A stretch of 64,000 nucleotides of DNA from an uncultured bacterium (GCA_963544615.1 CAUUGB010000001.1:10388-74387); one strand, 5' to 3'; numbered from the stretch's first letter, positions 24,494 through 57,176 are shown. Translations and numbers: made by a program. The notes: generated by a model not told the origin, from the letters alone.

Positions 24494-27400
24494 ATTCTTC
24501 TTCACAGTTTTATTAACTCTTACTTTAATTTTGGGGGGAATGGTACTAACTGTTAAGGCTCAACCAACTCCTACCCCTACTGACAAAACTCCATTGCAAA
24601 TTATCAGCAGTGAACAATTTCTCCGACGATTAGAAGAAAATTTGCCAAAAGATACTAAACCGGTTTATGTTTTTTCTGGTGCATATCAGCGGTTGTTTTA
24701 TCGACCCGCAAATAAAAATTGGAGTGGTAACTTGCTGACTATTCCCACTGATGTCCCGGCTCCTTATAAAGGTGGTCAAGATGTGCGTTCAGGAGTAATT
24801 TTGCCTTTAATTCAAAATTTAATCGACAATATTGACCCTGCCACTGATATTGGTGCTAATACTAATGTGTCTTTGCCGGCCTCAGTCACTATCCCTATTA
24901 TTAAAGGTTTAAAAAATGTGTGCGACCAGCAATGCGATGACAGTCGCTATAATAGCAATTTCCAGCTTTGTTTTCTACCTCGATGCACTGGTGGTGGTAA
25001 AGATGAGCCTCCTAAAAAATGTACTTGTGCCAGTAATTTAAGATGGAAAAAAGCTACCGATGTTTGTTACAATCAAACCATGCCCGGTGGCACTGATGGC
25101 TTGTGTGTTTTTAAAGATGAGGAATTAAAAGAGCGCTGTCGTGAATATGAATGTAGTGTTACCGAAGAATGCCCTACTGATGAAAATGGCAATAAAATTG
25201 TGGGTGATGATTGTGATCTCATGCCATATAATAAGAATTTTTCTAGTGAATCATTTAATGAAAATAATGCTTTTATGAATAAATATCGGTCATATAGCTG
25301 GATTAAAGATGCCTATGAGAATTGCTATACAGACAATTTTGTTCCTAGTAATTATCAGCCTACCTGGTGTGATGATAGTGTGTCTGTTTCAGATCCACCC
25401 GAGAATGGAGCTACTGATCCACCTGAAAATAGTGATGATTACAAAAAAGATTTTGCTTGCAATAACGATGATCGGCGTATGATGTGTGTTCATGATAATA
25501 AGGCGATGCCAGCTTTAACTAAAGCGACAGTTGATTGTTTGGCTGCTTTGAAAACCATGTTTTATGATATTGGTTCGCTTGGTGATTTATATAAAGCAAT
25601 TCTTGACATTATGAATGAAATGCTTGATGAATTAGAAAACTATATTTTACCGCCGGTGGTGATTGGTGGCGGGTATAAATGGAGCAAAACTCCAGAAGAA
25701 ACTAACATAATTGATGAGCCGGGCTTTTGTTTGAATAAGAATGTGAGTACTTGTTCTTGTGGACATATTTTACCTTTTAATGGTAGCACCATTACCAATT
25801 TGGGTTTGCGCCGTAAACTTTTGTCTTATGGAGTGGCGGATGCGAATAAATACTGTGTTAATACCGAAGGCGACCCGGCTTGTACCTATAGTTATAGTTG
25901 GGATACCGAAGAGGTGGAGGATAAACCGGTCAGCCGTAATACCAAAGTAGGGATGAGAAACATTTATGCCAGTCGGGCTTCTTATCCGGGTTGGGTAACT
26001 CATAAGGGTGGCTATGTGCATGGAGCCACTTGTGCTAAAAGACCCAAGGGCTCTTCGATTGGTGGTAGTGAATCCGGGAGTAAAACTCGCACTTTTGAGG
26101 TAACTGATAAAGAATTTTTCTTTTTACAAGCGCGCTATTTTGCCGATAAAATTGCCAGAGGAGAGAGCGACGAGCTCTCTTATGGTGGTTGTGATGATCG
26201 CTCTAATATTTTATACAATCATGCCACCGCCGCTCATTGCCAGCGCAAGGGTAAGCGAGGTATTAAATGTCGTTCGGGGTCTCGGCGGCGCTTTAGTAGT
26301 TATGCTTGCGATATTAATGGGGGAGTAATTAATCAGTGCAAAAATGGCAGAGTGGATGGCGGGCGTAACACTATTTGTCAGGTTTGTGGGCCTATTTATT
26401 GTGGTGAGCATGGTCTTTATTCCGATACCAATACAGTGCGCAAAAATTTTAAACTTGGTAATAGTCCTACCAGGCATTATAAATTTTATCGTTATTATCA
26501 TCCTCAGGGTTCCACCAAATATGGTGGTGGTGATGAGGGTGGTGGGGGTACCATAGATGGCTCGGAGATTTTTTACAGCTATAGCAGTCAAATTTGTTTG
26601 GGGGAGCGCTGTAATAGTAGCTACAATGACGCTGTTTTTACTCCACGTGATTTACCAGCTAATTCTGGTCAGGTTTTTGATGACCGCACTTGTCCCGAAG
26701 GAGAGATTGTTGACCCTTGCAAGCAGAGAGCCATTGCTAATAATTGGGGTGGGCACCGGCTGTGTTATGAGAGCTGTTGTGTGAGTAGTGATGGCAGCAA
26801 ATGTGATCGTTTTCCCCATGATTGCCCTCCGGGTGAGTGTTGTGAAGATGACGATAATAGTTGTCGTCAGCCAGCTGATAATTATCATTATGGTGGCGAC
26901 TTATGTTCTATTGGGGATGACACGAGTAAAACAGTTTCCGGAGTAGCAATTCCGGCTGCAGATGCCGAAAAATATGCTAACTACCAGTGTAATGTGGCAG
27001 GTACTTATGACACTCATTATCCAAAAAGCGTGGCTGAAAGTTATACATTCCCACTAAAGGAAAAAAGTGCTTGCTATTTTTGTGGTTGCGCTCCCATAGA
27101 GGGTAATAGCGGCAAAAGCGGTTGGTGGCCCCGTAATGCCAAAATTAAACATGGTGACCAGTGTTTAACTCCTGAACAGAAATGTGCTGCTGAATTTAAT
27201 CAAGTAAAAAATAACAAGCTAGAAATTGGCTATGATGGTTTAGCCCAAGCTATGGATAGGTCTGATGTTGATAGTCCTGTAACTTTGTTAAAAGGCATTA
27301 CTGGTATGACTAATTTAAGATGTGTGCGGTGCCGCTGTGTTGCCGGAGATGGTATTTGTGATGGGTATTCTGGTGATCCTAACGGGGTTTGTAAGAATTA

Positions 27401-30026
27401 TCCTCAGGGGACACTCGATCCAGATTGTGATCCTTTACTTCCATCACCAGGCCCTGAGTCTTGTGGTCCAAGTAATTGCAAAACACCTGGTGCTTGCTCT
27501 TGTAAAGTAAAACCTGGTTATAACTTAACTGAGTATCCTTATGGTGATGATTATGGTAATCATCCTCAGTGTCGTATTTGCATTTACAAATCCAAACCAA
27601 CTGGTTGTGGTGATGGTATTTGCAGTGGTTTGGAAACTTGTGAAAATTGTTCCCAAGATTGTGGTAAGTGTCCGCAGATGAGTGAGTGTCCCGATGGTTA
27701 TAGTAAGCTGTGCACTGGGGAGGGGTATCCTGTTACTGGTCTTGGAGATTGTAAACGCTGCTATGACCCTAATCACCTTGAGCAGCCTCAACATGGTTGT
27801 CAGGACGATGGTTATTGTAATCCTCTCTGCGAAGAAAAAGATGCGGATTGTGAGCCCGAGACAGCTAAGTATTTAACTAATGACAATGGTTGTCCTTACG
27901 GTTATGGCAAAACAAAAGAGTGTGGTTATGGTGAACGTCATCCTCTTTTAAGTGGCTGCTATGCTTGTGGTTGCGAGAGGCGTAAAAAGAACTTTATAGA
28001 AACCAAAATTGATAATCCACAGCTTTGTGATAAAGATGACAATCATGAGGAGGATAACTGTGACATTCATATGAAAGAATTTAGTTGCAGTCCATATGAC
28101 AATCAAAATAATTCTGGTTTACATTGGAAAGTGGTTACCTTAGCGCAGCAGCAGCAAATTTATCGCGATTCCCTCTGTTATGGCTATCAATTTTTTACCA
28201 CTAAAGAAGATAGCAGTGTGGTTACAGTAGGTGTTGATGTCTCTTACTATGATTATCAACAACGTGACGCTTGGATGCTTGATAGTGACGGTAAAGGTTT
28301 TATTTATTCTGACGCTAAAGGTGGTTATCGGCGCTGTCGCCCCGTGCGTATGCCTTATCGCGGTGGTAGCCTTAGCAGTGGCAAAGCTGGTCTGTGCGAA
28401 TATCGCTGTATTCCCGCCATGCATCAAGCCATTGTTTTAAGCTGTAGCGAAATTGATGCTCGTTATCCTCATGAGTACCGGGGTAATCCCAGTGATGAGA
28501 TGGTTTTTATTCCCGATGTTGCCCGCTCGGCTGGTAATAAAGAAGTTTACCTTGGTGGCACTAGTGAGGGCTTGAGTGTGGTGCCGCGTAGTAATGACGC
28601 ACGCTGTGGTCGCTATTATCGCGTCTACCCCAAACATATCGATAAGTCTGAGACTAATGATATTAACGGTGATGGCAAGGTTGACTGGCAAGATGGTAAC
28701 GCTGCCGCCTCTTATTTATTTACTGATTGGTGGCAAGTGGGTGGTAATGCTTACGGTAACGCTGGTGTGAGCAATTACGGCGAAAAAACGGCTTTTGTGG
28801 CAGAGCCGGCAGAAGTAAAAAATCTCAATCCCGCTACTGCCAAACTAGTAGGGAAAATGAAATCTTATCAGTATGCACTAAATGATGGGAGCTGTATTAC
28901 CAGTGGTGGGGAAATTAAGACCGGTGATTGGCAGCCGCCAACTGCTTATAAGCCTTCATCAGGCGCTGGTTTGCAGGTAACAGGTAGTGGCAATCCCACC
29001 ACCCTCATTAATAAACGCACTTATCGTCCATCTAATCAAACTGGCTTGGCGGCTAAAGGTGGTTACCAGTTTAGCTATCAAAAGCAGCGTGCTTTAGACT
29101 TTGAGTATTACCGTACTCTACTTGATTATGAAAAAATACCTAAGAATGGTAGTAGTAGAGTTCAAGTGAAATTAGCCGATGGTAATATAGAGGAAACTTT
29201 TGTCTACCGTTTTTTTGGCAGAAATGTTAAATTCAATGATGATATTAAGCCCATTGTAGATAGTATTGGTGTAGATAAAAAAGTAGTTATCTTTGTAGAA
29301 AGTCAGGGTGCTGAAACAAGTAATGTCGGCGGTAACTTTATTCTCGATGCTAATATGGCAAGTTATGATCCCAATGGTTATTTAGCAGTGATTGCTCAAA
29401 AAGACTTTATTATTGAGCCTCAAGTTGGTTATCATTTAAATACCCAAAATGGCCAAGGTTGTGGTATTAATACTGTCACATTATGCACTCCCTCATTTAA
29501 TGGGGTAGTTATTGCGCGAGGTTTAGTGATGAAGCGCGAGGGTGACGGCAGCGATCCCAGCAGTAACCCTACGTTGGTGGATGGTCTTTTTAATCCCCAG
29601 CTTACTTGTGATAAACGCTTAGTGCTTAAAGGCGCTTATGCTTTTTGGGGCAAGCAACCGGTGGTCTTTACCCGGACTCTTTTGGGCTGTGGTTTGAAAA
29701 AAGGTCCTTTCTCCAATGACAAGGCGAGCTTAAATGTTCACAATGCTCGAGGTAATGCTCATGGAGATGACTTTGAGGGCAGGCGACCAGATGTAAAGCT
29801 TAATAACAAGAATGCCTATGATGATTATTGTCGCACTGGCACAGTTAGGCGCAATGGTAATGGCTACTATAACTATCACTTGAATTGGCCAGATAGTCAG
29901 GGTGGGATGTACAATAACTACAATCGCTTGATTTCTGCTACTCAGTTGGTGGTTAATCAACAGTTAATTAATTTAACTCCTGCTTGGATGAGACAAAACC
30001 TCACCACTCGTTTGGAGGTGCGCTAA
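24480..30026 (+). CDS. Giant secreted cysteine-rich protein (about 1850 aa), a putative surface/adhesion protein.
   Basis: Signal peptide MPKNKFFFTVLLTLTLILGGMVLTVKA. Alternative starts are GTG 24456 and ATG 24462. The N-terminal roughly 1150 aa are extremely Cys-rich with CGDGIC...E.C..C..DCG-type modules and Gly/Asp/Tyr-rich spacers. A dockerin/EF-hand-like loop DINGDGKVDWQD is present. The C-terminal roughly 650 aa are Cys-poor and Gly/Asn/Tyr-rich. Confidence 0.7.
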   Translation: MPKNKFFFTVLLTLTLILGGMVLTVKAQPTPTPTDKTPLQIISSEQFLRRLEENLPKDTKPVYVFSGAYQRLFYRPANKNWSGNLLTIPTDVPAPYKGGQDVRSGVILPLIQNLIDNIDPATDIGANTNVSLPASVTIPIIKGLKNVCDQQCDDSRYNSNFQLCFLPRCTGGGKDEPPKKCTCASNLRWKKATDVCYNQTMPGGTDGLCVFKDEELKERCREYECSVTEECPTDENGNKIVGDDCDLMPYNKNFSSESFNENNAFMNKYRSYSWIKDAYENCYTDNFVPSNYQPTWCDDSVSVSDPPENGATDPPENSDDYKKDFACNNDDRRMMCVHDNKAMPALTKATVDCLAALKTMFYDIGSLGDLYKAILDIMNEMLDELENYILPPVVIGGGYKWSKTPEETNIIDEPGFCLNKNVSTCSCGHILPFNGSTITNLGLRRKLLSYGVADANKYCVNTEGDPACTYSYSWDTEEVEDKPVSRNTKVGMRNIYASRASYPGWVTHKGGYVHGATCAKRPKGSSIGGSESGSKTRTFEVTDKEFFFLQARYFADKIARGESDELSYGGCDDRSNILYNHATAAHCQRKGKRGIKCRSGSRRRFSSYACDINGGVINQCKNGRVDGGRNTICQVCGPIYCGEHGLYSDTNTVRKNFKLGNSPTRHYKFYRYYHPQGSTKYGGGDEGGGGTIDGSEIFYSYSSQICLGERCNSSYNDAVFTPRDLPANSGQVFDDRTCPEGEIVDPCKQRAIANNWGGHRLCYESCCVSSDGSKCDRFPHDCPPGECCEDDDNSCRQPADNYHYGGDLCSIGDDTSKTVSGVAIPAADAEKYANYQCNVAGTYDTHYPKSVAESYTFPLKEKSACYFCGCAPIEGNSGKSGWWPRNAKIKHGDQCLTPEQKCAAEFNQVKNNKLEIGYDGLAQAMDRSDVDSPVTLLKGITGMTNLRCVRCRCVAGDGICDGYSGDPNGVCKNYPQGTLDPDCDPLLPSPGPESCGPSNCKTPGACSCKVKPGYNLTEYPYGDDYGNHPQCRICIYKSKPTGCGDGICSGLETCENCSQDCGKCPQMSECPDGYSKLCTGEGYPVTGLGDCKRCYDPNHLEQPQHGCQDDGYCNPLCEEKDADCEPETAKYLTNDNGCPYGYGKTKECGYGERHPLLSGCYACGCERRKKNFIETKIDNPQLCDKDDNHEEDNCDIHMKEFSCSPYDNQNNSGLHWKVVTLAQQQQIYRDSLCYGYQFFTTKEDSSVVTVGVDVSYYDYQQRDAWMLDSDGKGFIYSDAKGGYRRCRPVRMPYRGGSLSSGKAGLCEYRCIPAMHQAIVLSCSEIDARYPHEYRGNPSDEMVFIPDVARSAGNKEVYLGGTSEGLSVVPRSNDARCGRYYRVYPKHIDKSETNDINGDGKVDWQDGNAAASYLFTDWWQVGGNAYGNAGVSNYGEKTAFVAEPAEVKNLNPATAKLVGKMKSYQYALNDGSCITSGGEIKTGDWQPPTAYKPSSGAGLQVTGSGNPTTLINKRTYRPSNQTGLAAKGGYQFSYQKQRALDFEYYRTLLDYEKIPKNGSSRVQVKLADGNIEETFVYRFFGRNVKFNDDIKPIVDSIGVDKKVVIFVESQGAETSNVGGNFILDANMASYDPNGYLAVIAQKDFIIEPQVGYHLNTQNGQGCGINTVTLCTPSFNGVVIARGLVMKREGDGSDPSSNPTLVDGLFNPQLTCDKRLVLKGAYAFWGKQPVVFTRTLLGCGLKKGPFSNDKASLNVHNARGNAHGDDFEGRRPDVKLNNKNAYDDYCRTGTVRRNGNGYYNYHLNWPDSQGGMYNNYNRLISATQLVVNQQLINLTPAWMRQNLTTRLEVR

Positions 30027-30044
30027 ATTAAATTACCACTCATC

Positions 30045-31754
30045 TTGAGGCTTATGTCTATTAATGGTCGCTATCAGCAATTTTATTCGCCAAAGATGAA
30101 GCGCCTGGTCTTTCCTCAAGGCAATCTTTATGATTTATTGCAGCAAGCTAATCAGGGGAAAGAGAATGAGTATGCACTTGATTATTTTGGTCAGCGCCTA
30201 ACATATGGTTGGCTTTTTAGTGAAATTGAGCGCTGCACTAGTGCACTTTTAGCACTGGGAATTAAGCAAGGTGAGGTAGTGACTGTTTGCTCACTTTTAA
30301 CGCCGGAAACCCTGGCAGTTTTTTATGCGCTCAATCGCTTAGGTGCAATTAGCGATTGGCTCGATCCGCGCTCTAGCGAGCCAAAAATTATTAAAACCCT
30401 CAAACAAACTAAAAGTAAATTATTAATTATCCTCTCACCATTGGCAAAAGTTTTTGCTAAGGCTTTGTCTAAAAGCAGTTGTCGAGTGGTAATTTTATTA
30501 AATCCTCTCACTCAAGCTGGTCTGCCAAGCAAAGTTTTGGGTACCCTTAAAGGTTTATTTACTCCAGCACCAGCTTTTCCCTCCAAAATTCGCTTACTCA
30601 CTTATAAGCAATTGCTTTTATTAGCCCATAAGCAGCCTGCCCCCAATATTCGTCCACGCCTTCATCAGGGGGCGGCTATTGTACATACTGGTGGCACCAC
30701 TGGGCAGCCTAAAGCAGTTTTGCTCACTAATGAGAGTATTAATGCCGAGGTTACCCAAGTGGCTAATTTTCATTTGCGGTTTAAGCGCCAAGAGCGCTGG
30801 CTCTCTTATTTACCGCCTTTTGTGGTGGTTGGTTTAGTAAATGTGATTCACTTACCCTTAATCTTAGGGATGGAGCTTTGTTTAGTGCCCAACTTTCTTA
30901 CCATGACTTTAGCTCAACAGCTTAAAACTTATCGGCCACATCATATTCCCTGCATTTCGCTGCATTGGCGCGAAATTATCAGCGGTAAAAAGTTGCAAAA
31001 TTTTTCTCTTGATTTTGTTAAAAGTATTATTGTAGGAGGGGACGTTTTTTACCGGGGTATGGAAGAGCGCCTGATTGATTTTTTGCGCGCCCATAATTGC
31101 CATATTGCCCCCACCAAATGTTATGGCTCGAGTGAAAGCTCTTCAGTGGCAGTCGCCGGCTGTAATCATCAACCTTATAATAAATTAGGTAGTGTAGGTA
31201 TTCCTTTACCAGGTAATCAGGTTGCCATTTATGAGGTAGAGAAAAAGCAACTGACTGGTCGAGCTGGAGTGATTGGGGAAATTTGTTTAGCCGGACCGGT
31301 TTTAATGAAAGGCTATTATGCCGATGAAACCGCTAGTAAAAAAAGTCTGCGCACTCATGCGGGTAAGCTGTGGTTGCATACCGGAGACTTAGGTTATTTA
31401 GATGATGATGGAGTATTATTTTTAGCGGGACGCAGTAAGCGGATGATTATTAGACGGGGCTTTAAAATTTATTCTTTAATGATTGAACAATTACTTAATC
31501 AGCAAGAGGAGGTTAAAATTGCTGTGGTGGTCGGTAAACCAGATAAAGCTGATGATGAAGTGCCTTGTGCCCATTTAGTACTGCAAGAAGATTACAGTCA
31601 CCGCCCGGCTGAGGTGGAAAAGAAGCTACGCTTGCTTTGCCAACAGCATTTAAGTGATTATCAAGTGCCGGTGCAATGGTATTTTCACCAGTCTTTACCA
31701 CTAACTGCCAATGGTAAAATAGATTATCGTTTTTTAGAAAACTATCATGAATAA
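30045..31754 (+). CDS. Adenylate-forming enzyme (AMP-dependent synthetase/ligase, acyl-CoA/acyl-AMP ligase family).
   Basis: AMP-binding motif I HTGGTTGQPKAV. Core motifs YGSSESS and HTGDLGYLDDDGVLFLAGRSKRMI. No carrier-protein gene is adjacent. Confidence 0.8.
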   Translation: MRLMSINGRYQQFYSPKMKRLVFPQGNLYDLLQQANQGKENEYALDYFGQRLTYGWLFSEIERCTSALLALGIKQGEVVTVCSLLTPETLAVFYALNRLGAISDWLDPRSSEPKIIKTLKQTKSKLLIILSPLAKVFAKALSKSSCRVVILLNPLTQAGLPSKVLGTLKGLFTPAPAFPSKIRLLTYKQLLLLAHKQPAPNIRPRLHQGAAIVHTGGTTGQPKAVLLTNESINAEVTQVANFHLRFKRQERWLSYLPPFVVVGLVNVIHLPLILGMELCLVPNFLTMTLAQQLKTYRPHHIPCISLHWREIISGKKLQNFSLDFVKSIIVGGDVFYRGMEERLIDFLRAHNCHIAPTKCYGSSESSSVAVAGCNHQPYNKLGSVGIPLPGNQVAIYEVEKKQLTGRAGVIGEICLAGPVLMKGYYADETASKKSLRTHAGKLWLHTGDLGYLDDDGVLFLAGRSKRMIIRRGFKIYSLMIEQLLNQQEEVKIAVVVGKPDKADDEVPCAHLVLQEDYSHRPAEVEKKLRLLCQQHLSDYQVPVQWYFHQSLPLTANGKIDYRFLENYHE

Positions 31755-32982
31755 ACAGTCTCCTACCCCCACTACCACTCAGTCTGCAGGTTTATTGGCA
31801 ATCATGCAAGCTTACAGTTGGAGTGTTTACTTTTTTTGCCTGCTACTTTTAGCGGTGGTTTTTAGTAAAACTTTTTTGGGGGAATATCCTTTTGATGTTA
31901 GTGAAGTTTTAATTGCCATGCACGAATTTAGCGGGGGGTTGCTCAGCAATGGGATAGTTGCTGGGTTTTTGTTTTTAGTTTCTTTAGTACCGATAGCGAT
32001 TATGGCTGCCTTAATTCACTCTCAAGGCAAAAAAATTACCGCTGTCAAGCTTACTTCTGCCAACTGGCGAGTACGGCTTTTTTTAGCGCTCTTGTTAGGG
32101 GGTACTTTTTTACTTCATTTACTGCCCACTTTTTCTTGCGCTAATCCTATGTGTGATTATTTACCGGTGGTGGCCAGTTTTCCTGGTTTGCCTTTGGGGG
32201 TGGCTTTAGCCACCACTGTCGATGGTTGGGCTAGCGCTCAGGGTGGGGTGTGGGCACAGCTAGATTATCGCTTTTTAACTATTCTCCCGAATGCTTTGTT
32301 TTTGTTGGTTCTCTCTTTTTATTTTCTCACTCCTAAAGCCCAGTTGCCGCGCTTAATTCGCTCACGTTTGCTGCTTTGTTTGGGTTTGCTGATACTAGTT
32401 TTAGGTTTGCTGGTTTTTTATCTTTATTACTTGTCGCAAATAGTTTTTACTTTAAGTGATAATGATTTAGCCGATTTATTAAATCAGCACGCTCCAGCGC
32501 AAGTGGTAGAAGATTTTCATTTTCAAATTGGTGATGTCCTCATTCATCGTCCCAAAGAAATTGGTCAAGATTTAGTGACTAAATTAAGTGGTACCAATTT
32601 ATCGCATACCGATACTTATTGCGGTGAGAATGAGTTAATCAATGGCAATGGTGATAATTTTTTTCAAACTGGAGGAATTAATATTGATAAGCTTGAGTGG
32701 CAACAGCGTTATGTGCGTGGTTCATTGCCACTGACGGTAGTTTTACGCCATCCCGATCCGCAGGTAGGAGCACAGTTGTGTGCCAAGCTGCGTCGTGCGG
32801 TTAGTGATCCCAAAATTACTTTTGGGGTAGATTTGCTTAATAAGCGGCAAACTTTTAACTGTTCTAATATGGTGTATTATTATTTATATCCCCAAGCGCC
32901 CAATTTTAATTTAGTCACTCCCGATTTACTGTTTGTCACCATGCTCCAGCATGACTGGCGCTTAGTTAATTGGACTAACTAA
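31747..32982 (+). CDS. Polytopic membrane protein fused to a C-terminal permuted papain-fold (YaeF/YiiX, C92 / LRAT-like) domain.
   Basis: About six TM helices in the first 240 aa. The C-terminal domain carries GDVLIHRP, SHTDTYCG and FNCSNMVYYY. These match the Gly-Asp, His and Cys-Ser motifs in the order typical of YaeF/YiiX permuted NlpC/P60 proteins. It overlaps the adenylating-enzyme gene by 8 nt. Confidence 0.5.
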   Translation: MNKQSPTPTTTQSAGLLAIMQAYSWSVYFFCLLLLAVVFSKTFLGEYPFDVSEVLIAMHEFSGGLLSNGIVAGFLFLVSLVPIAIMAALIHSQGKKITAVKLTSANWRVRLFLALLLGGTFLLHLLPTFSCANPMCDYLPVVASFPGLPLGVALATTVDGWASAQGGVWAQLDYRFLTILPNALFLLVLSFYFLTPKAQLPRLIRSRLLLCLGLLILVLGLLVFYLYYLSQIVFTLSDNDLADLLNQHAPAQVVEDFHFQIGDVLIHRPKEIGQDLVTKLSGTNLSHTDTYCGENELINGNGDNFFQTGGINIDKLEWQQRYVRGSLPLTVVLRHPDPQVGAQLCAKLRRAVSDPKITFGVDLLNKRQTFNCSNMVYYYLYPQAPNFNLVTPDLLFVTMLQHDWRLVNWTN

Positions 32983-33018: not shown

Positions 33019-33906
33019 ATGAAAAAATCTGTATCATCACCGTCAACTAGTTCTGCCAGCGGTTCCTTGTTAGCGGGCAAAAAAAAAGTTAAAAAAGCAG
33101 CCAAAAAAAATCTTTCTAGTTCAACTACTAACACTGACAGCAAAAAAAATCTGCCCCCCAAAAAAAGTGGTCAGCTGTTTTTTTTAGTTTTAGCTTTAGC
33201 ACTTTTGTTTGCAGTGGCTTGGCGGTTGAAAGGGGGGCTAAATTTAACCAAACCCAGTCAACCCAGCACTCCCTCTGCCGATGAGATAGAAAGCTATGAT
33301 ATTTATGAGGTGGAGGCAGAAATCCTTGAGCAAGAGGCCACCCTTTACAATGATTATTTTGCCTTTAGCTACACACTGCCACCTAGTTACGCTGTTTATG
33401 AATGGTGGGAGCATAATTTAGCTAAAGAGCCGGGTGAAACTGGGCGCTTATCTCAGTTTGAGTTTACCAATGAGGATGGTGAGAGAGATAGTGAGAGTAG
33501 CCCCAATAGTGAGCAAAAATTTATTAGTTTTATTGCTTATGGTAATAAGCGCTACTCCCAGCTGGAGGATCATTTTGATGTCATAGTGGACGCAATTAAA
33601 ATTGCCGGCGCAGATAATCAGGAAACTTTTTTAGACCTTTACGAAAAGAATTTAATTTTTGGGCAAAAATTAGCCGAGGACTATTTGTTGGAGAAAAAAA
33701 CTCCCCTGCAGCTTGCTGGTAGAGATTGGGCGCAGCGCCTTTACCAGAGCGTGGGTGATGAGCGACCAATTTATTTGCTCCGTCTTGCCACACCACTTAA
33801 AAATGGTTATTTTTTGGTGATGCAATCTACTTATTGGGCCAACAATCCTCAGGCTTATGAGCAAGTATTAGCTCATTTTGCTCAAAGCATTAAGTTTAGT
33901 GAGTAA
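33019..33906 (+). CDS. Membrane-anchored hypothetical protein with a Lys/Ser-rich cytoplasmic N-terminus.
   Basis: Basic low-complexity N-terminus, one TM helix (LFFLVLALALLFAVAW), then an acidic soluble domain. It precedes the pilin cluster. Confidence 0.45.
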   Translation: MKKSVSSPSTSSASGSLLAGKKKVKKAAKKNLSSSTTNTDSKKNLPPKKSGQLFFLVLALALLFAVAWRLKGGLNLTKPSQPSTPSADEIESYDIYEVEAEILEQEATLYNDYFAFSYTLPPSYAVYEWWEHNLAKEPGETGRLSQFEFTNEDGERDSESSPNSEQKFISFIAYGNKRYSQLEDHFDVIVDAIKIAGADNQETFLDLYEKNLIFGQKLAEDYLLEKKTPLQLAGRDWAQRLYQSVGDERPIYLLRLATPLKNGYFLVMQSTYWANNPQAYEQVLAHFAQSIKFSE

Positions 33907-33952
33907 TTTGACTCCAGTAGTGTCAACAAGCTGTGGTAGAGGGGGAAAAAAT

Positions 33953-33981
33953 TTGACAAAGGGGTGAATTTTTTCTAAAAT
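33953..33981 (+). promoter_or_regulatory. Consensus-like sigma-70 promoter of the major pilin gene
   Basis: -35 TTGACA, 17-nt spacer, -10 TAAAAT. Confidence 0.6.
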
Positions 33982-34024
33982 TAATTAACTACAAATATCG
34001 GCAAAGTTATAAAAACAGAAAGGC

Positions 34025-34609
34025 ATGATTATGCTTAAAAGAAGCGCTGCATTTACACTAATTGAATTAATGGTGGTAGTGGCTATTATTGCTATTTTAT
34101 CTACTATGGGGGTAGCAAATTTTTCCACCGCCATTAAGCGCTCGCGTAATGCGGTGCGGCAGAATGATGTCTTGGCGGTAAGTAAAGGTTTGGAAGCTTG
34201 TTATGATGTAATGAGTGCGAGGTATTTAAATCCAGCAGGTGGTGCAGCCACTGATTGCCATAAACCATATGAAAGCACTATGACCGGCGGTGCTAATGGA
34301 GTGTTTAAAGCAGATAGTAAAGGTGATCAGTCTTGTCAAAATCGTTGTCTCAATCAGGATATAAAGCCCAATATGAATAATCATAATTATACGGCATTAG
34401 TAGGATTGGTTGATAGTGCAGAAAAGTTTGTTATTTGTGCCAAGTTAGAAAACGTTGGCAATGTGGAAAGCATTGGTAACTCTAAAACAGATTTAGCAGC
34501 ATTGCCTAATATTGAGACGGCAATCGAAACATTGTCAAATTCTACTAATAAGTGTGATGCTGGTGGCGGTACCGGTGGGTGCTTTTTCTGCGTTACTTCT
34601 TCACAATAA
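34025..34609 (+). CDS. Type IV pilin (prepilin-type N-terminal cleavage/methylation domain), a candidate major pilin.
   Basis: KRSAA|FTLIELMVVVAIIAIL class III signal with Glu at +5. The C-terminal region has Cys pairs. A strong promoter lies upstream and a strong terminator follows. Confidence 0.8.
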   Translation: MIMLKRSAAFTLIELMVVVAIIAILSTMGVANFSTAIKRSRNAVRQNDVLAVSKGLEACYDVMSARYLNPAGGAATDCHKPYESTMTGGANGVFKADSKGDQSCQNRCLNQDIKPNMNNHNYTALVGLVDSAEKFVICAKLENVGNVESIGNSKTDLAALPNIETAIETLSNSTNKCDAGGGTGGCFFCVTSSQ

Positions 34610-34635
34610 ATTAAATAAATTTAGCTAAAGCATTG

Positions 34636-34661
34636 CCCCCTCGCTAGCGAGGGGGTTTTTC
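34636..34661 (+). terminator. Rho-independent terminator after the first pilin gene
   Basis: CCCCCTCGC-ta-GCGAGGGGG followed by T5. Confidence 0.8.
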
Positions 34662-34691
34662 TTGACATACACCTGGAAATAATGCTAAAAT
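34662..34691 (+). promoter_or_regulatory. Promoter of the second pilin gene (extended -10)
   Basis: -35 TTGACA, 18-nt spacer, TGc-TAAAAT extended -10. The ATG at 34698 lies only about 6 nt past the -10, so the transcript is nearly leaderless. Confidence 0.55.
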
Positions 34692-34697
34692 GCTTTC

Positions 34698-35231
34698 ATG
34701 AAACACAAGCAAGCCTTCAGTTTAATTGAATTAATGGTGGTTATTAGTATTATTGCGGTTTTGGCAGCCATGGGGGTGGCTAATTTTGCCACTGCAATTA
34801 AAAAATCTCGCGACTCGGTGCGCAAAAGTGAACTGGCTGAATTAACTCAAGCGCTGATGATGTTTCGGGCAGATTGGGGTTCGTATCCATATCGCTATGG
34901 TATGGATGCAGTAAGGCTGACATCAACAGCCATTTTAAATTACGAAGAGCCAGCCAGTAATCCTGTTAAAACACATGAACTAGTTCCTGATTATATCCGC
35001 TCCATGCCTACCGATGAAGCACGTGTTAGTGAGAGTGAGCAATATACTTATAAGTGCATCACGCCAAAAGAGGTCATCATTGATGGTGTAACTTATTGGC
35101 GCTGTGTTGATTTTAGCGTTTGCGCTTATTTAGAAGTGCCGCAGGTGAGTGGGGCAAATGCTAAAGATGGGATAGGTACTCCTTGTCTCAATCCCAACGA
35201 TTGCAAATGGTTTTGTATGTATAGTCCGTAA
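34698..35231 (+). CDS. Type IV pilin (prepilin-type)
   Basis: KQA|FSLIELMVVISIIAVLAAMG N-terminal domain with Glu at +5. C-terminal Cys residues are present. Confidence 0.8.
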   Translation: MKHKQAFSLIELMVVISIIAVLAAMGVANFATAIKKSRDSVRKSELAELTQALMMFRADWGSYPYRYGMDAVRLTSTAILNYEEPASNPVKTHELVPDYIRSMPTDEARVSESEQYTYKCITPKEVIIDGVTYWRCVDFSVCAYLEVPQVSGANAKDGIGTPCLNPNDCKWFCMYSP

Positions 35232-35236
35232 AGTTC

Positions 35237-36178
35237 ATGCCTCAGTCATTTTGCCGCTATCCTCGCTCTGCTTTCACCTTAATTGAGATTTTAATTGTGG
35301 CAGTGATTTTTAGTATTCTTTCACTGGCAGTGGGGCGGTTTTTAATTACTTTCTTAAATTTAAAACTTAGTGCCGAGACAATTCAGCGCATCCGCCAAGA
35401 AGGCAATTATGCCCTCGACCAAATTGATTATTTACTCCGCAGTGGCTTAACCATGCCCGATGTGTGTGTAGGCAGAATTCGCCCGGCTAATCCTCCCTCC
35501 GGCTTTGATTTGCATCACGATCTTCAAGCAGTCAAAGATAATCCTGATCCTAACAACATCATGCCTGCGCCATGTGTTGAGGAGCCAAAAGATCCTGATC
35601 CTCTTAGTGTCATAACCAAAGAACCTATTCACTGTGAACTTAATCCCACTCCTCAGCCCGGCTTCAGCTACTCATCTTATCACTCCAAAATTTATGACAC
35701 TTGCCAAGAAAAATGTCATGTTTATGATCAACTGCGCACCAACACTCAGGGGTTAGATCAGGTTTATTTTGTGCGCAATTTAGTGGCATTAGCAAATTGT
35801 GATGGCAGTGGTGGTAGTAGTGGATGCCGGCAGCCGTCCTCACCTGATGAGGTATCCAGTTTATATTTATTTCGCAGTTTGGCGGCTGACCGGCGTCATG
35901 ACGATTTTGACGACTTTGCCCGTAGTCCTCAGGTGCAAAGAATTCCCTTAACTAATTGGCGCACTGGAGTTGGGGGTGAACCCTTTTCAGTAAATAATTT
36001 GCGCTTTTATTGTTTTTTTGATTATTTTGCCAACAGCTATGTGGTACACACTTCTTTTGACATCACTTATCAGCGCCAATCTTTAAGTGGTCGGTTGCAA
36101 CAAGTTGGCACCAAGCGAATTAATGAGCGCTTTGAGCGCTTGAGTGTGGTGCGCAATCCTTACCCTTTTGAATACTAA
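35237..36178 (+). CDS. Prepilin-type minor pilin / pseudopilin (313 aa)
   Basis: RSA|FTLIEILIVAVIFSIL N-terminal methylation-domain motif. It has a large divergent C-terminal domain. Confidence 0.65.
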   Translation: MPQSFCRYPRSAFTLIEILIVAVIFSILSLAVGRFLITFLNLKLSAETIQRIRQEGNYALDQIDYLLRSGLTMPDVCVGRIRPANPPSGFDLHHDLQAVKDNPDPNNIMPAPCVEEPKDPDPLSVITKEPIHCELNPTPQPGFSYSSYHSKIYDTCQEKCHVYDQLRTNTQGLDQVYFVRNLVALANCDGSGGSSGCRQPSSPDEVSSLYLFRSLAADRRHDDFDDFARSPQVQRIPLTNWRTGVGGEPFSVNNLRFYCFFDYFANSYVVHTSFDITYQRQSLSGRLQQVGTKRINERFERLSVVRNPYPFEY

Positions 36179-36253
36179 AGTTGGGGTTATTATTAACCAT
36201 TAAACTCCAGCTAAACTAACAGCTGGTAAATCTTTGTTAACAATTAATATTGT

Positions 36254-36934
36254 TTATGGAGAAGTCAGACAAGAGCCGTTATAAGGTAATTCATTGGTAA
36301 TGTCTTGGCTAAATTTTTGAGCCACCTGCACTTGTTTATTGTTGCCTTTATAATCTTGATATTGCACGGTTACCACCACGGTAACTTCTTGGGCAGTACC
36401 TGACCCTGACATAAATTTTAAGCGAACTTGGTATTGACCGTGATAACCCAGCTTAAAGTTAGGGTTATTGTCAACCTTGGGTTGACCGCAAATGGTGTCG
36501 TTAACATTACCCCTTGTCTGCCTGCTCCATTCGGTTGTATCAGTAAAAAAGTCTAGCACCGGTTTCTCTGCATACAGACCCGCTGGTCGATTAAGAATAT
36601 CGTAAGCGGGTAATTGATAGGGAAACTCACATTTAATTTCATCTGCCCATCCACTGTTAGGAGTAGTATACTCATTGCTTTTTCCGGCACATTGTTCCCA
36701 AAGCCGCTGGTAAAATTGCCACCACAACATCCCATCACGAGCGGTGCGCCAGCGCTCCAGGCAAGAATTGGCTTGGTCGACTGCCTTAGCCCGCAGCCGG
36801 GCGTCAATAATTACCCGCTGGGTATAAAAAATATTACTGGCTAAAGCTATGAGGACAAAAGAAATCAAGGTCACCGCCACTAGTATTTCAATCAGTGATA
36901 AAGCGCTTTGGTGTGAAGGAGTGGTTTTTAGCAT
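36254..36934 (-). CDS. Prepilin-type minor pilin (PilV/FimT-like)
   Basis: HQSA|LSLIEILVAVTLISFVL N-terminal motif with Glu at +5. Confidence 0.65.
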   Translation of the reverse strand: MLKTTPSHQSALSLIEILVAVTLISFVLIALASNIFYTQRVIIDARLRAKAVDQANSCLERWRTARDGMLWWQFYQRLWEQCAGKSNEYTTPNSGWADEIKCEFPYQLPAYDILNRPAGLYAEKPVLDFFTDTTEWSRQTRGNVNDTICGQPKVDNNPNFKLGYHGQYQVRLKFMSGSGTAQEVTVVVTVQYQDYKGNNKQVQVAQKFSQDITNELPYNGSCLTSP

Positions 36935-37593
36935 GTTTCTGTCTTACATCTCTCTATATTCTCACAAAAACAGCCGTGCGTAAAGGTGCCATTTTCTAGT
37001 AAAAATACATAATAGAGGTCGCCATCAGTTAAAATAAAACGAGCGTTAGCGTGTTTATGGTCAGTTTTCTCCTTTTCTGTGACGGGAGCAGATCCATTTT
37101 TCACATAAATTAAACCATATAAAGAATCAAAAACAAGCGTGTTGCCACCATTCTCATTGTGAATACTTAAGCCCACATCTTGAGGTAGGGTAAAATAGTG
37201 AGTTTTGTTAGTTTTCTCTTCATTAGCACCATCACGGTCTTTTTTACTGTAAAAATAAACTTTGGGTTCCAATTTACTACTCGTGTTACCGCTGTCAGTT
37301 GGAGGCAAGCCAGCAATCTGCCAATGACTCAATTTACACTCGCCTTTGGCGATAGTTGCTTCGTCGGCTGAACTGCAAGATTCTTCACCCCCACCACGAT
37401 TACCCAGACGAGCTTTTTGAGCCATACTGTTAAAATAAACAATTAATTCTCTGGCGGTATTTTCCAGTCGCTGGCGGTCGCGTACTTTTAGATAGTTAAC
37501 CAGTCCCACGGTGAGCAAAAAAACCACAATGGCAACTACGGCTAAAACTTCCACTAAGCTGTACCCTGCCTTCTTGCCCTGCATGAGCATCAT
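36928..37593 (-). CDS. Prepilin-type minor pilin
   Basis: KKAG|YSLVEVLAVVAIVVFLL N-terminal motif with Glu at +5. It overlaps the downstream pilin gene by 7 nt. Confidence 0.65.
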   Translation of the reverse strand: MMLMQGKKAGYSLVEVLAVVAIVVFLLTVGLVNYLKVRDRQRLENTARELIVYFNSMAQKARLGNRGGGEESCSSADEATIAKGECKLSHWQIAGLPPTDSGNTSSKLEPKVYFYSKKDRDGANEEKTNKTHYFTLPQDVGLSIHNENGGNTLVFDSLYGLIYVKNGSAPVTEKEKTDHKHANARFILTDGDLYYVFLLENGTFTHGCFCENIERCKTETC

Positions 37594-37706
37594 TCTAGCA
37601 TTCTCTCCCAGCGCTTGTCAAGCGATTACGCCTGGAAAACTCAGTTTCTCCAGATAATAAGTGCTCACTCATCTTGGTAACAATTTGATATAATACCCAA
37701 AGAGGG

Positions 37707-38750
37707 GTGGGGGTGGTGCAATTTTTTACTGCTGCCGCTAACAAGTTATTTAAGGGTGCTGTTATGTTAACTAAACACTTAGGGAAATTATTATTGTGTT
37801 TAATCACTACTCTGGGAGTGAGTTGGTGGTTTGGTGGCTACTCTCTGCTTGCTCAAGCTGCTCCTTTATCCGCTGGGGTGGCTGATTTGGCGCCAACTTT
37901 TAGAGCGCAAATAGAAGCTAGTGCCAGCACTCAAAGTAGTAATTTGGGTGCTAGTCACGCTGCTTTGGTGGTTAATCCCGACGCCACTCAAGTAATTTTA
38001 GAAAAGAAAAATCAAGATTTAACTGAGGTAACCAGTAGCAAAACGGTGGAGTTAGCCACCCAACTTTTAGAAAAACCAGAGTCAGATATCAAGTGGTATC
38101 ACTTTATGCAAAGCTGGATTAGGCGGGCAATTACCAATGGTTTGCCAAGCAATTTGCTCACTTTGCTCATTTTGTTTCCCATTGTGGCCACCATTATTGC
38201 CTTTTCACGTCACGTTTTGGGTTTGCGCGGTTTTGGCATTTACGCCCCAGCCACCCTAGCCATTGCTTTTCTTTCTACCACTATTACCATGGGAGTAATT
38301 ATGTTTGTGTTTATTGTTTTAGCCACAGTTATCTCTGGGCGAATTTTGCGCCATCTTAATTTGGCTCATTTGCCTAAATCTGCCTTAACCATTTGGTTAG
38401 TGTGTGTTCTAGTGATTGCTTTGCTTTTGGTGATGGCTAATTTACATGTAGAAGAATTTTATGCCCTCACCATTTTGCCTTTGCTGTTTTTGGTTTCTTT
38501 AGCAGAAAACTTTACCAGCACCCAGCTGATGTCCTCCACCAGAGAAGCAGTGCGCTTAACGGTGGAGACAATTTTTTTAGCGGTGATTTCTACTCTCATT
38601 ATTGGCTCCAATCCCATCAGAGTATTTGTCATCTTAAATCCGGAATTAAGTTTGCTGGCAGTGTTTGGGCTTAATTTGTTAATTGGCCGTTATACTGGTT
38701 TGCGCCTGACTGAATTGCTGCGCTTTAAGTTACTGGTAAAAAAGAAGTAA
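37707..38750 (+). CDS. Seven-TM membrane protein of the type commonly paired with RimK-like ATP-grasp ligases (7TM_transglut-like membrane module).
   Basis: An N-terminal roughly 140-aa extracytoplasmic segment is followed by seven hydrophobic helices. It lies 4 nt upstream of the ATP-grasp gene. The family assignment is by architecture and gene context only. Confidence 0.45.
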   Translation: MGVVQFFTAAANKLFKGAVMLTKHLGKLLLCLITTLGVSWWFGGYSLLAQAAPLSAGVADLAPTFRAQIEASASTQSSNLGASHAALVVNPDATQVILEKKNQDLTEVTSSKTVELATQLLEKPESDIKWYHFMQSWIRRAITNGLPSNLLTLLILFPIVATIIAFSRHVLGLRGFGIYAPATLAIAFLSTTITMGVIMFVFIVLATVISGRILRHLNLAHLPKSALTIWLVCVLVIALLLVMANLHVEEFYALTILPLLFLVSLAENFTSTQLMSSTREAVRLTVETIFLAVISTLIIGSNPIRVFVILNPELSLLAVFGLNLLIGRYTGLRLTELLRFKLLVKKK

Positions 38751-38754
38751 ATTT

Positions 38755-40050
38755 ATGGCTTGGCTGCAATTAAATACCCGCGAAATACTGGGAATGAATG
38801 CCAGAAATAGGCTTTATACCAGTAAAAACTCTAAGTTTGCTCGCAGCCTAGCTCATTCCAAATTTTTAACCAAGCAACTGATGAGTAAGCAAAATATTGG
38901 GGTGGCAAAAATTATTACAGTTTTAAAAAATCATGATGATGTTCATGATTTCAACTGGAATTGTTTGCAAGCTAACTTTGTGGTTAAGCCCAGTAATGGT
39001 TCTGGTGGTAAGGGGATTGTGGTTTTTAAGAAACAACTTGGCGATGGTGGTTTTGTGGATACCATTGGCAAAAAATGGACTCTAGAAGCCATTCAGTTTC
39101 ATTGTCTTGATATTTTGGAGGGTAAATTTAGTACTCATCCCGGAGTAGAGACGACAGTGATTTTAGAAGAGCGGGTAGAAGCGCACCCCTTACTGCAAAA
39201 ATATGCTTATAAAGGTACTCCCGATGTGCGGGTGATTGTTTACAACAGTGTTCCAGTGATGGCGATGTTGCGTTTGCCAACACGTGAAAGTGAGGGTCGG
39301 GCTAATTTACATCAAGGTGCCATTGGGGTGGGCATTGATTTAGACACCGGGTTAACTACTTATGCGATTACTGGGGCGGGGCGGGAGATTACCCATTTAC
39401 CTGAGAGTAAAAGAAAGCTTTCAGGAATTTTGGTGCCTTTTTGGGAACAGGCGCTGTTAACTGCCGTTAAAGCTGCCGGAGCTGCCAATCTCCTTTATGG
39501 GGGAGTTGATCTTTTTATTGATAAGCAAAAAGGTCCAATGGTGGTGGAGCTAAATACTAGCCCGGGACTTTCCATTCAATTAGCTAATCATCAGGGTCTT
39601 AAAAGAAGGCTAGAGCGTATTCACGATTTGCAGGTTTTAAGTCCGGAACATGGGGTGAGGATTTCTCGGGCGCTGTTTCGCTCTAATTTAACCGATTGCT
39701 TTATTGACCCTGCTTGTCGGGCAGAAATTTCGGTAGTTAATCCGGGGGAATTAATTTTGGGTAAAAGTAAAAAAGATCGCCTGCCAGTGAGTTTTTTTGT
39801 TAATACCCGGCGTTTTCGCTCCTCAATTTCTCAACAATTAGCTTTGGAGTTAGGGTGGCTGAAACCAGAGGATTTACTTTGGTATCAGCAAACCGAAACT
39901 GGCGAAAAAGCCCCAGTAATTGAGGTGAGCTTTGTGCTCAAGGGTAAAAAAATTAAAACTGAAATGTTGGTTTCCAAACAATTAGACAAAAGCAAAAATA
40001 AAGTTCATTTGGGCAGAAGAGATTTAGGTCAATTTTTGGTGAAAGCTTAA
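38755..40050 (+). CDS. RimK-like ATP-grasp ligase (alpha-L-glutamate ligase-related / 'sugar-transfer associated' ATP-grasp)
   Basis: Pre-ATP-grasp region KFLTKQLMSKQNIGVAKIITV. ATP-grasp motifs VVKPSNGSGGKGIVVF and VRVIVYN...MLRLP. There is an N-terminal extension of about 60 aa. Confidence 0.7.
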   Translation: MAWLQLNTREILGMNARNRLYTSKNSKFARSLAHSKFLTKQLMSKQNIGVAKIITVLKNHDDVHDFNWNCLQANFVVKPSNGSGGKGIVVFKKQLGDGGFVDTIGKKWTLEAIQFHCLDILEGKFSTHPGVETTVILEERVEAHPLLQKYAYKGTPDVRVIVYNSVPVMAMLRLPTRESEGRANLHQGAIGVGIDLDTGLTTYAITGAGREITHLPESKRKLSGILVPFWEQALLTAVKAAGAANLLYGGVDLFIDKQKGPMVVELNTSPGLSIQLANHQGLKRRLERIHDLQVLSPEHGVRISRALFRSNLTDCFIDPACRAEISVVNPGELILGKSKKDRLPVSFFVNTRRFRSSISQQLALELGWLKPEDLLWYQQTETGEKAPVIEVSFVLKGKKIKTEMLVSKQLDKSKNKVHLGRRDLGQFLVKA

Positions 40051-47069: not shown

Positions 47070-47099
47070 TTGACAAGTTTACTTAAGGCTTGCTATAAT
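47070..47099 (+). promoter_or_regulatory. Sigma-70-type promoter
   Basis: -35 TTGACA, 18-nt spacer, -10 TATAAT, located 33 nt upstream of the ATG at 47132. Confidence 0.55.
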
Positions 47100-47131: not shown

Positions 47132-47737
47132 ATGTTTAATGCTCATAATTCTGCCGATAGTCAGCAAGCTGCCAGTGATGAGGTAGCCAATGAATTTGAC
47201 CAGCTGGCGGCACAAATGCCTTTAGCTGACTACGAAGACGTGCCTCCCATGGCAGAAGAAGCGCTTTATACTTGGGTCGCCCCAGAGCGAATTTTTCGCC
47301 CTCGCTTGTCAATGGATTTTAAGCGTAATTTAATTTTGCTTTTAGCCTTGATTGTGTTGTTGTTAATTTTTTTAAGCAATCTCTCTCTTTTGATTGTGGT
47401 GTTGTCGCTGATTTTTTTTATGTTTGTGGTAATGAATGTGCCTCCCTTAAAAATTCGCCACACCTTAACCAATTACGGTATTTATGTGGGTGATCACAAA
47501 TTTTATTCATGGAAAGATCGGGGCGCACGCTTTTGGTGGGAGCAAAGTCATGGACAAAATTATGTGGTGGTAGAAACCCGGGTGTTTCCTTATAAGATTG
47601 TGATGCTGGAGGGTTTAGAGGGTAATAAGCAAATTATTAGCAACATTTTAGGCGCTTATTTACTGGAGCAAAAACCACCGCAAACTGAGGCTGATAAATT
47701 GATTAAGTGGCTTCGCGAAACTTTTCCTTTGGAGTAG
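47132..47737 (+). CDS. Hypothetical membrane protein
   Basis: 201 aa. Acidic N-terminus, two adjacent TM helices, and a C-terminal soluble domain. Confidence 0.45.
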   Translation: MFNAHNSADSQQAASDEVANEFDQLAAQMPLADYEDVPPMAEEALYTWVAPERIFRPRLSMDFKRNLILLLALIVLLLIFLSNLSLLIVVLSLIFFMFVVMNVPPLKIRHTLTNYGIYVGDHKFYSWKDRGARFWWEQSHGQNYVVVETRVFPYKIVMLEGLEGNKQIISNILGAYLLEQKPPQTEADKLIKWLRETFPLE

Positions 47738-54740: not shown

Positions 54741-54750
54741 ATTAGGGGGC

Positions 54751-57147: not shown

Positions 57148-57176
57148 TTGACAAAAATGTTAGCTGTAACTATAAT
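57148..57176 (+). promoter_or_regulatory. Consensus sigma-70 promoter upstream of rny
   Basis: -35 TTGACA, 17-nt spacer, -10 TATAAT. This would give a roughly 150-nt leader. Confidence 0.55.

Follow-up and report, generated by a model that had tools for sequence, protein, structure and literature searches.

What does a cluster of genes with prepilin-like N-termini encode in this stretch of DNA from an uncultured bacterium (GCA_963544615.1, CAUUGB010000001.1:10388-74387; 64,000 nucleotides (nt), the whole of which is here referred to as the window)? An earlier note, made from the sequence, had placed five prepilin-type genes with near-consensus promoters at 33019-37593. The locus is a genuine but unremarkable group of five genes for type IV pilins, the building blocks of a retractable surface fibre. 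The genes are here referred to as p1 to p5, and we are fairly confident that they encode the subunits from which a type IVa-like pilus filament is built in a probable Patescibacteria/Candidate Phyla Radiation (CPR)-type bacterium, and that they form three units with near-consensus sigma-70-type promoters.

A listing of open reading frames (ORFs) and a six-frame motif scan of the window recovered exactly five ORFs with an N-terminal prepilin (class III) motif and a hydrophobic helix, and nowhere else in the 64 kb did the scan pick up such an N-terminal motif. The pilin ORFs span 34025-37593, all adjacent and intact, and the strand count, previously given as two or three plus and two minus, is settled as three plus and two minus. 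With its promoters the cluster proper occupies approximately 33953-37621. The end of the range first reported thus holds for the pilins; its start, 33019, belongs to an ORF of 295 amino acids (33019-33906) with a Lys/Ser-rich N-terminus and one membrane helix. This ORF was considered as a sixth pilin and rejected: it lacks a prepilin motif, a Glu at +5 and any Pfam or NCBIfam match, and therefore stands outside the pilin set. The features of the cluster are as follows (a slash marks the predicted cleavage site).

33953-33981, plus strand: p1 promoter, TTGACA-17-TAAAAT
34025-34609, plus strand: p1, 194 amino acids (192 if the start is 34031), …RSAA/FTLIELMVVVAIIAIL, motif A/FTLIE
34635-34656, plus strand: intrinsic terminator after p1, a 9-bp stem with 7 G-C pairs and then a T-run
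34662-34691, plus strand: p2-p3 promoter, TTGACA-18-(TGc)TAAAAT, with the ATG 6 nt past the -10
34698-35231, plus strand: p2, 177 amino acids, MKHKQA/FSLIELMVVISIIAVL, motif A/FSLIE, also motif FRADWGSYP
35237-36178, plus strand: p3, 313 amino acids, …YPRSA/FTLIEILIVAVIFSIL, motif A/FTLIE
36179-36253, no strand assigned: convergent intergenic spacer of 75 nt with a short hairpin CCAGCT...AGCTGG (z -2.3 and -2.8)
36254-36934, minus strand: p4, 226 amino acids, …SHQSA/LSLIEILVAVTLISFV, motif A/LSLIE
36928-37593, minus strand: p5, 221 amino acids (218 from ATG 37584), …GKKAG/YSLVEVLAVVAIVVFL, motif G/YSLVE
37621-37592, minus strand: p5-p4 promoter, TTGACA-18-(TGc)TAGAAT, with ATG 37584 lying 7 nt past the -10

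All five proteins carry a class III signal, with a leader of 6-17 residues, Ala or Gly at -1, Phe, Leu or Tyr at +1 and Glu at +5. The check with hidden Markov models (HMMs) for N-methylation domains that the earlier note proposed bears out its reading of the motifs. Four proteins pass the PF07963 (N_methyl) gathering score of 21.2 bits (p1 31.3, p2 32.7 with E=4.8e-8, p3 27.7, p4 21.9), and p5 falls below it at 18.8 bits. TIGR02532 (cut-off 16.3) was exceeded by p1-p3 and, at 17.2, by p5, and p4 was not listed; each of the five thus passes at least one of these two models of the IPR012902 class, so prepilin models do recognise the motifs. There are no frameshifts or internal stops, and full-length orthologues of all five occur in related contigs, which contradicts a set of frameshifted pseudogenes. 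Only the N-terminal helix is common to all five proteins. Structure models show the lollipop fold, in which a long N-terminal alpha-helix packs on an antiparallel beta-sheet.

Related metagenome contigs with the pilin locus (L001-L003, L006 and L008) keep the five-gene convergent layout, the gene orientation and the flanks. Upstream the shared flank consists of a giant ORF, an AMP-binding enzyme and two hypothetical membrane proteins, and downstream of a 7TM_transglut gene and an ATP-grasp gene. All three promoters are conserved in the related loci, and the pilin orthologues have invariant N-terminal helices and conserved cysteines. In more distant relatives the layout is not kept. L007 has two tandem p1-type genes, and at a distance of a few kb its opposite strand carries a PilM gene with neighbours that belong to no assigned family; L004 has one p1-type gene plus a separate group of three pilin genes. 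In L004 (GCA_017431625.1; 1-162 and 11548-13068) the p1-type gene lies amid T4SS_pilin, CdiA_C toxin-domain, ParE and AAA_14/DUF4143 genes, a neighbourhood that looks mobile or defence-rich. A p1 family profile search of genome contigs, swamped by N-terminal-helix matches from unrelated phyla, returned one full-length relative, L009 (Patescibacteria group bacterium, 31% identity).

The genes are arranged in three units: p1 alone, p2-p3 (5-nt gap) and p5-p4 (7-nt overlap), the latter two convergent. The near-consensus promoter ahead of p1 and the strong terminator behind it, both already noticed, are present and conserved in relatives; the hexamers and their spacing are kept in L001, L006 and L008, and the p1 leader of approximately 37-43 nt contains a Shine-Dalgarno-like GAAAGG. 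A G+C-rich hairpin with a T-run follows p1 in each related locus, its stem sequence differing from locus to locus (hairpin conservation in the p1-p2 spacer was read directly from the sequences). In the window, the T-run of this terminator extends into the -35 hexamer of the p2 promoter. That second promoter and the almost leaderless start of p2 were likewise described correctly, and the 6-nt gap between the -10 and the p2 ATG is kept in L001, L006 and L008. Absent from the earlier list was the p5-p4 promoter, which is kept in L001, L002, L006 and L008 with an ATG or GTG 6-7 nt downstream. Because the -10 hexamer of this promoter and the first ATG of the p5 ORF (37593) overlap, we moved the start of p5 to ATG 37584, judged from the sequence to be the likely true start (MQGKKAG/YSLVE); the p5 orthologues begin with MKK… or VKK… directly after the -10. 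The p2-p3 and p5-p4 mRNAs are predicted to be leaderless because the ATG lies just 6-7 nt past the -10, and since the start of p4 overlaps the stop of p5 by 7 nt, translational coupling of these two genes is suggested. Between the convergent units, the hairpin in the 75-nt spacer is a possible weak bidirectional terminator; the spacer is without a clear U-tract and was not called by the terminator scan.

The pattern TTGACA-N17-18-TARAAT has three matches in the 64 kb, all at pilin units, against an expectation of 0.09; three matches were not attained in any of 100 shuffles, and relaxing it to N16-19 and TANAAT adds just two sites. The pilin cluster would thus carry the strongest predicted promoters of the window. 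Its only other near-perfect promoters (TTGACA-N17-18-TATAAT) lie at 47070-47099, preceding a gene for a 201-amino-acid hypothetical protein (47132-47737), and at 57148-57176, approximately 160 nt upstream of the RNase Y gene.

Sequence variability sets the pilins apart from their surroundings. Between the window and related strains, amino acid identity of the pilins is 42-84%, versus 92-99% for flanking enzymes. In the comparison with L006 and L008 it is 97% in both contigs for AMP-binding, for ATP-grasp 99% in both, for Metallophos 99% (L006) and 98% (L008) and for GpsA 96% in both. The corresponding values for L006 and L008 are 62% and 58% for p1, 81% and 59% for p2, 78% and 55% for p3, 83% and 57% for p4, and 84% and 43% for p5. 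Housekeeping proteins of the window fall into 90%-identity clusters of 16-28 members that include the L006 and L008 proteins; p4 and p5 are singletons at this clustering level. A nucleotide identity profile in steps of 300 nt falls from 96% to 33-86% against L008 between ~31.5 kb and ~38.7 kb and then returns to 93-99%. Against L006, identity is 85-98% over most of this block, with troughs of 89% and 60% across p1 (33925-34524), lying in its C-terminal half, of 77% at the p1-p2 junction and of 59% at an insert in p3 (35425-35724). A tblastn search for silent pilin cassettes found none in the window. Because the pilins diverge while their flanks are near-identical, with sharp boundaries, the pattern seems to indicate diversifying selection or allele exchange at exposed surface subunits.

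Several neighbouring genes share in this variability. In L008 and L001, the divergence of the pilins is matched by that of the 1856-amino-acid ORF and of the two hypothetical membrane proteins. The former (24456-30026) adjoins the variable pilin block upstream, has no Pfam match, is 75% (L006) and 50% (L008) identical at the amino acid level, with indels, and is probably a giant surface protein. The membrane proteins (31747-32982, 411 amino acids, and 33019-33906, 295 amino acids) have no family match; they show 61-65% and ~50% amino acid identity in L001 and L008 and 96-98% in L006, and may belong functionally with the pilus locus. Downstream, at 37707-40050, a 7TM_transglut protein and an ATPgrasp_ST/RimK-like (alpha-L-glutamate-ligase-like) ligase form a pair conserved in all related loci, and the 7TM_transglut gene lies partly within the variable block (80% amino acid identity to L008). 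The AMP-binding gene (30045-31754) is 96-98% identical in nucleotide sequence to L001:6224-7933, and other L001 genes are just 40-80% identical to the window (GpsA 67% and Metallophos 65% at the amino acid level), which indicates either a recent single-gene exchange between diverged lineages or extreme constraint.

The subunits can be sorted into classes by HMM scores and predicted structures. The first, p1, has a confident pilin fold in its predicted structure, 8 Cys and a conserved C-terminal C-x-F-C-x3-Q; in its family of ~37 full-length homologues the N-terminal 60 residues are invariant, the Cys are conserved and the C-terminus reads C-x-F-C-x3-Q(Q). Because it is the sole gene with its own promoter and terminator, and differs more than the other four between the closest strains (62% against L006), p1 is singled out as the shaft subunit and is the probable major type IV pilin. 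The second, p2, matches TIGR01710 (GspG) over residues 6-106 with 41.6 bits (E=1.2e-10), short of the equivalog cut-off of 88.85, and its orthologue profile matches Thermus PilA4 (8e-8) and PulG (9e-8); by these scores it resembles GspG/PilA and stands outside the GspG equivalog.

The earlier description of the minor pilins as large and divergent is borne out by the tiny families of p3 (22 matches in 5.8 billion sequences) and p4 (35 clusters among 1.84 billion representatives). In the predicted structure of p3 the pilin helix is followed by a GspJ-like globular domain with two sheets, and a strain-variable insert of ~125 residues lies at approximately residues 85-210. Searches with p3 against the GspJ (TIGR01711) and PilW models gave no match at E<=0.01, and only weak matches to TIGR02532, ComGC and ComGD were seen; the modelled fold suggests a GspJ/PilW-class minor pilin. 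For p4, the models TIGR02523, TIGR01707 and NF041013 were used. The protein itself reached 18.6 bits with TIGR02523 (cut-off 52.2), and among 34 family members 20 match PilV (best 3e-15), 19 XpsI/GspI and 18 ComGE by E-value, cut-offs not being applied; a PilV/GspI/ComGE-class minor pilin is thus the predicted assignment. Its orthologue profile found nothing among PDB sequences. With p5, matches were to NF007800 (E=3.6e-10, 39.9 bits, cut-off 158) and TIGR01708 GspH (E=0.0095), and the orthologue profile matched PDB sequences in the N-terminal helix only; p5 appears to be a minor pilin, weakly GspH/PpdA-like. These class labels denote resemblance and not family membership, because every named-family score falls below its curated cut-off.

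The closest studied system is that of Nanosynbacter lyticus TM7x, which has two type IV pili (T4P), T4P-1 and T4P-2. In Saccharibacteria the pilins of T4P are encoded in several loci, with a small, highly expressed major pilin and elaborated minor pilins, and the pili serve host binding and twitching (PMC11623550). As in TM7x, the organism is probably of Patescibacteria type, the pilin locus stands apart from machinery genes, and one small, probable major pilin is accompanied by larger, elaborated minor pilins resembling pseudopilins of the type II secretion system (T2SS); predicted lollipop folds and low similarity to pilins outside the group are also shared. Unlike TM7x, the present locus has a convergent 1+2+2 layout with three near-consensus promoters, and none of its subunits could be recognised as a PilX type with a large C-terminal domain; the likeness described here is one of organisation. 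Compared with the Thermus thermophilus cluster pilA1-pilA2-pilA3-comZ-pilA4, identity is just 8-25% (structures compared were TTHA1219, TTHA1222 and PilA4; PDB 5g23, 5g2f and 6xxd), there is no ComZ-like gene here, and gene orientation and regulation differ.

Among core minor pilins, GspH/I/J(/K) correspond to FimU/PilV/PilW/PilX and to ComGD/E/F/G, and p5, p4 and p3 fall by HMM or fold into the H, I and J classes. Like such core sets, they are encoded in pairs beside a G-type pilin, consistent with a priming or tip complex. Unlike them, the set here has no K-class member, scores under the cut-offs and carries the strain-variable insert in p3. The pilA allele groups of Pseudomonas aeruginosa and pilE of Neisseria are hypervariable major-pilin loci of diderms. 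They share with the present locus a conserved N-terminal helix, a divergent exposed C-terminal domain and sharp recombination boundaries. The differences are that the window holds no silent cassettes and that its variable block includes minor pilins and two membrane proteins and adjoins the 1856-amino-acid protein.

Traces of assembly machinery lie at the start of the window. ORF 3-566, truncated at the edge of the window, combines a membrane helix and a coiled coil with an alpha/beta C-terminal part, and gives a sub-threshold T2SSM/PilO match. Its full-length, 99%-identical orthologue on contig L089 (region 125-1531) scores 25.0 bits with T2SSM (cut-off 27.8), and the gene directly upstream of it there scores 20.7 with PilN (PF05137; cut-off 22.8). 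Because two adjacent near-threshold matches stand in canonical order, a pilMNO operon at the window start is plausible from these scores; the L089 contig stops 826 nt upstream of the PilO-like gene, ahead of any pilM. Two small ORFs downstream (572-1006 and 1003-1395) were without matches, and in a BLASTP comparison neither the PilO-like ORF nor these two resembled the proteins encoded next to PilM in L007. Peptidase_A24, T2SSE and T2SSF domains were found on no window ORF; a working assembly machine for p1-p5 is assumed, and the complete T4P system at scattered loci that the earlier note proposed would be a conjecture.

The window belongs to an 86,441-nt contig of a metagenome-assembled genome, and the source is probably an ultrasmall bacterium of Patescibacteria/CPR type. 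Its distant relatives are named 'Patescibacteria group', 'Candidatus Daviesbacteria' or 'bacterium', and its gene content is in line with Patescibacteria (many small hypothetical genes, sortase, RNase Y, FtsEX and few metabolic genes). Side by side at 52614-55461 are a gene for a 708-amino-acid hypothetical protein and then a sortase gene, likely a sortase-anchored surface pair. Between the FtsK and DnaG genes, at 11037-11831, a 264-amino-acid protein has a C-terminal phosphoribosyltransferase domain; we take its architecture to be of ComF type, and it may have a role in DNA uptake.

Could p1 and p2 both be major subunits, alternating or co-polymerising to give two filaments or one heteropolymer? 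Both are G-type, share 55% identity over their first 53 residues and stand behind near-consensus promoters; p2 can be matched over ~95 residues to PilA4 and PulG, which are major subunits, and the more distant relative L007 has its two tandem p1-type genes. There are precedents for either outcome, since PilA1 and PilA2 of TM7x build two different filaments (PMC11623550) and PilE1 and PilE2 of Streptococcus sanguinis form one heteropolymer (PMC6916266). However, p1 and p2 have unrelated globular domains beyond the shared N-terminal region, whereas PilE1 and PilE2 are similar. Furthermore, p2 lies 5 nt upstream of the GspJ-class p3 and is presumably co-transcribed with it, p1 is the only stand-alone unit with a terminator, and the tandem pair of L007 consists of two p1-type paralogues, not of p1 and p2. 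Two major subunits therefore appear somewhat unlikely, and p2 would more likely be a low-abundance subunit or a fourth priming subunit than a second major pilin.

A competence (Com-type) pseudopilus for DNA uptake, like the monoderm ComGC-GG, would be suited by five pilins as one major and four minor Com subunits. Ala at -1 is reported for Com-type pilins of Gram-positive bacteria, there are weak matches to ComGC, ComGD and ComGE models, relatives of p4 match ComGE, and the window has a ComF-like phosphoribosyltransferase-domain gene at 11037-11831. The scores with Com models (NF040999, NF040982, NF041013) are, however, far under the cut-offs, the best ComGC score being 23.5 against 75 bits, and p1 has 194 amino acids and 8 Cys, whereas ComGC has ~100 amino acids. 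The pilin genes are also not in one operon behind comGA/comGB, no ATPase or platform gene is adjacent, and the sub-threshold PilN/PilO-like pair, typical of type IVa pili, lies in the same genome region. We consider the competence reading improbable.

Still less probable, and in our view to be given very little weight, is that p1-p5 are the T2SS pseudopilins GspG/H/I/J and not a pilus. The best named HMM or structure matches do include GspG (p2), GspJ/XcpW/EpsJ (p3), XpsI/GspI (p4 family) and GspH (p5). All T2SS-model scores are nevertheless under the family cut-offs, the window is without GspK, a secretin and GspC/L/F/E, and Patescibacteria are described as having neither an outer membrane nor PilQ (PMC6851277). 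Moreover, Gsp matches are expected for a pilus too, because the core minor pilins of T4P are homologous to GspH-K (PMC11623550). That the motifs are fortuitous or the genes decaying pseudogenes, as the PF07963 scores of p5 (below gathering) and p4 (barely above) might hint, can be dismissed, since five intact ORFs with order and length kept in at least four related contigs, invariant helices, conserved Cys, confident structure models for p1 and p3 and conserved promoters all contradict decay.

Several points weigh against our preferred reading of a type IVa-like pilus in a Patescibacteria-type bacterium. Domains of PilB/T, PilC, PilD and PilM were found on none of the scanned window ORFs, and no GspK/PilX-class subunit was recognised among the five pilins. 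The class of p4 comes from its relatives and not from its own scores, and that of p5 from sub-threshold matches. What points to Patescibacteria is the gene content, together with how distant relatives are named, and promoter strength and leaderless translation were read from sequence alone.

Two features that had been singled out in the cluster turned out to be common habits. Ala does occupy -1 in p1-p4, with Gly in p5, as the earlier note had counted, but cleavage by the prepilin peptidase (PilD) 'at a glycine or alanine' is documented (PMC3244431). In the p1 family the -1 residue is Ala in 31 and Gly in 4 of 35 members, and in the p3 family Ala in 16, Gly in 4 and Ser in 2 of 22. The 28 p4 family members with a recognisable motif have Ala (17), Gly (10) or Ser (1). 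Between orthologues of one gene, too, the residue changes: p3 has Ala in the window, Ser in L001 and Gly in L008, and p5 has Gly in the window and Ala in L001 and L008. With Ala/Gly cleavage documented, Ala in the majority and orthologues swapping Ala, Gly and Ser, a special peptidase is needless, and Ala at -1 is nothing unusual but a lineage-wide habit.

The almost leaderless start is no more specific to pilins. A -10-like hexamer TA[ATC]A[AC]T ending 5-8 nt before the start codon was found for 11 of the 55 window genes, with a gap of exactly 6 nt in 7 cases; 0.5 such genes are expected by motif frequency, and 1.8 if occurrences are spread evenly over the upstream region. Examples (TATAAT, TAAAAT, TAAACT) are at 8661, 14707, 15562, 16907(-), 40892(-), 51490(-) and 45522. 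Shine-Dalgarno-like motifs are sparse across the window. This arrangement suggests that leaderless mRNAs may be common in the source organism; literature on leaderless translation in CPR yielded nothing usable. Both habits are of use in annotating such genomes, for instance in shifting the start of p5 and in letting pilin predictors accept Ala, Gly or Ser at -1.

The expression, processing, roles and function that we infer for the five proteins would run as follows. The monocistronic unit would supply p1, the probable major pilin, the p2-p3 unit a GspG/PilA-like pilin and a GspJ/PilW-class minor pilin, and the p5-p4 unit the GspH-like and PilV/GspI-class minor pilins, coupled in translation. 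In keeping with type IV filament biology, the prepilins would insert in the membrane, where a PilD-type peptidase encoded elsewhere would cleave after the Ala or Gly at -1 and methylate the new N-terminus. The H-, I- and J-class subunits p5, p4 and p3, possibly together with p2, would prime assembly and so end at the tip, and p1 would polymerise under this tip complex. The presumably exposed globular domain of p1 and the insert of p3 vary strongly among strains with near-identical housekeeping genes, and the pilus may serve attachment to a host or partner cell, possibly motility or DNA uptake too.

In ultrasmall episymbiotic bacteria, T4P are among the few surface structures tied by experiment to host attachment (PMC11623550). 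The locus is a clean, conserved case of a T4P subunit set with assignable classes, and it leaves the current understanding of type IV filaments unchallenged. What is new here is modest, namely the strain-level variability of a pilin cassette with strong predicted promoters in an uncultured, probably ultrasmall bacterium. The head of p1 and the insert of p3 are candidate determinants of partner specificity. More speculative, and in our estimation rather doubtful, is that the ~7-kb block which begins with the membrane protein at 31747 and ends with the 7TM protein at 37707 forms, jointly with the 1856-amino-acid protein, an exchangeable host-recognition cassette. If it did, strains of the same species would trade whole alleles of the subunits of pilus tip and shaft, with homologous recombination taking place in the conserved AMP-binding and ATP-grasp flanks, and such swaps would change which host cell the episymbiont attaches to.

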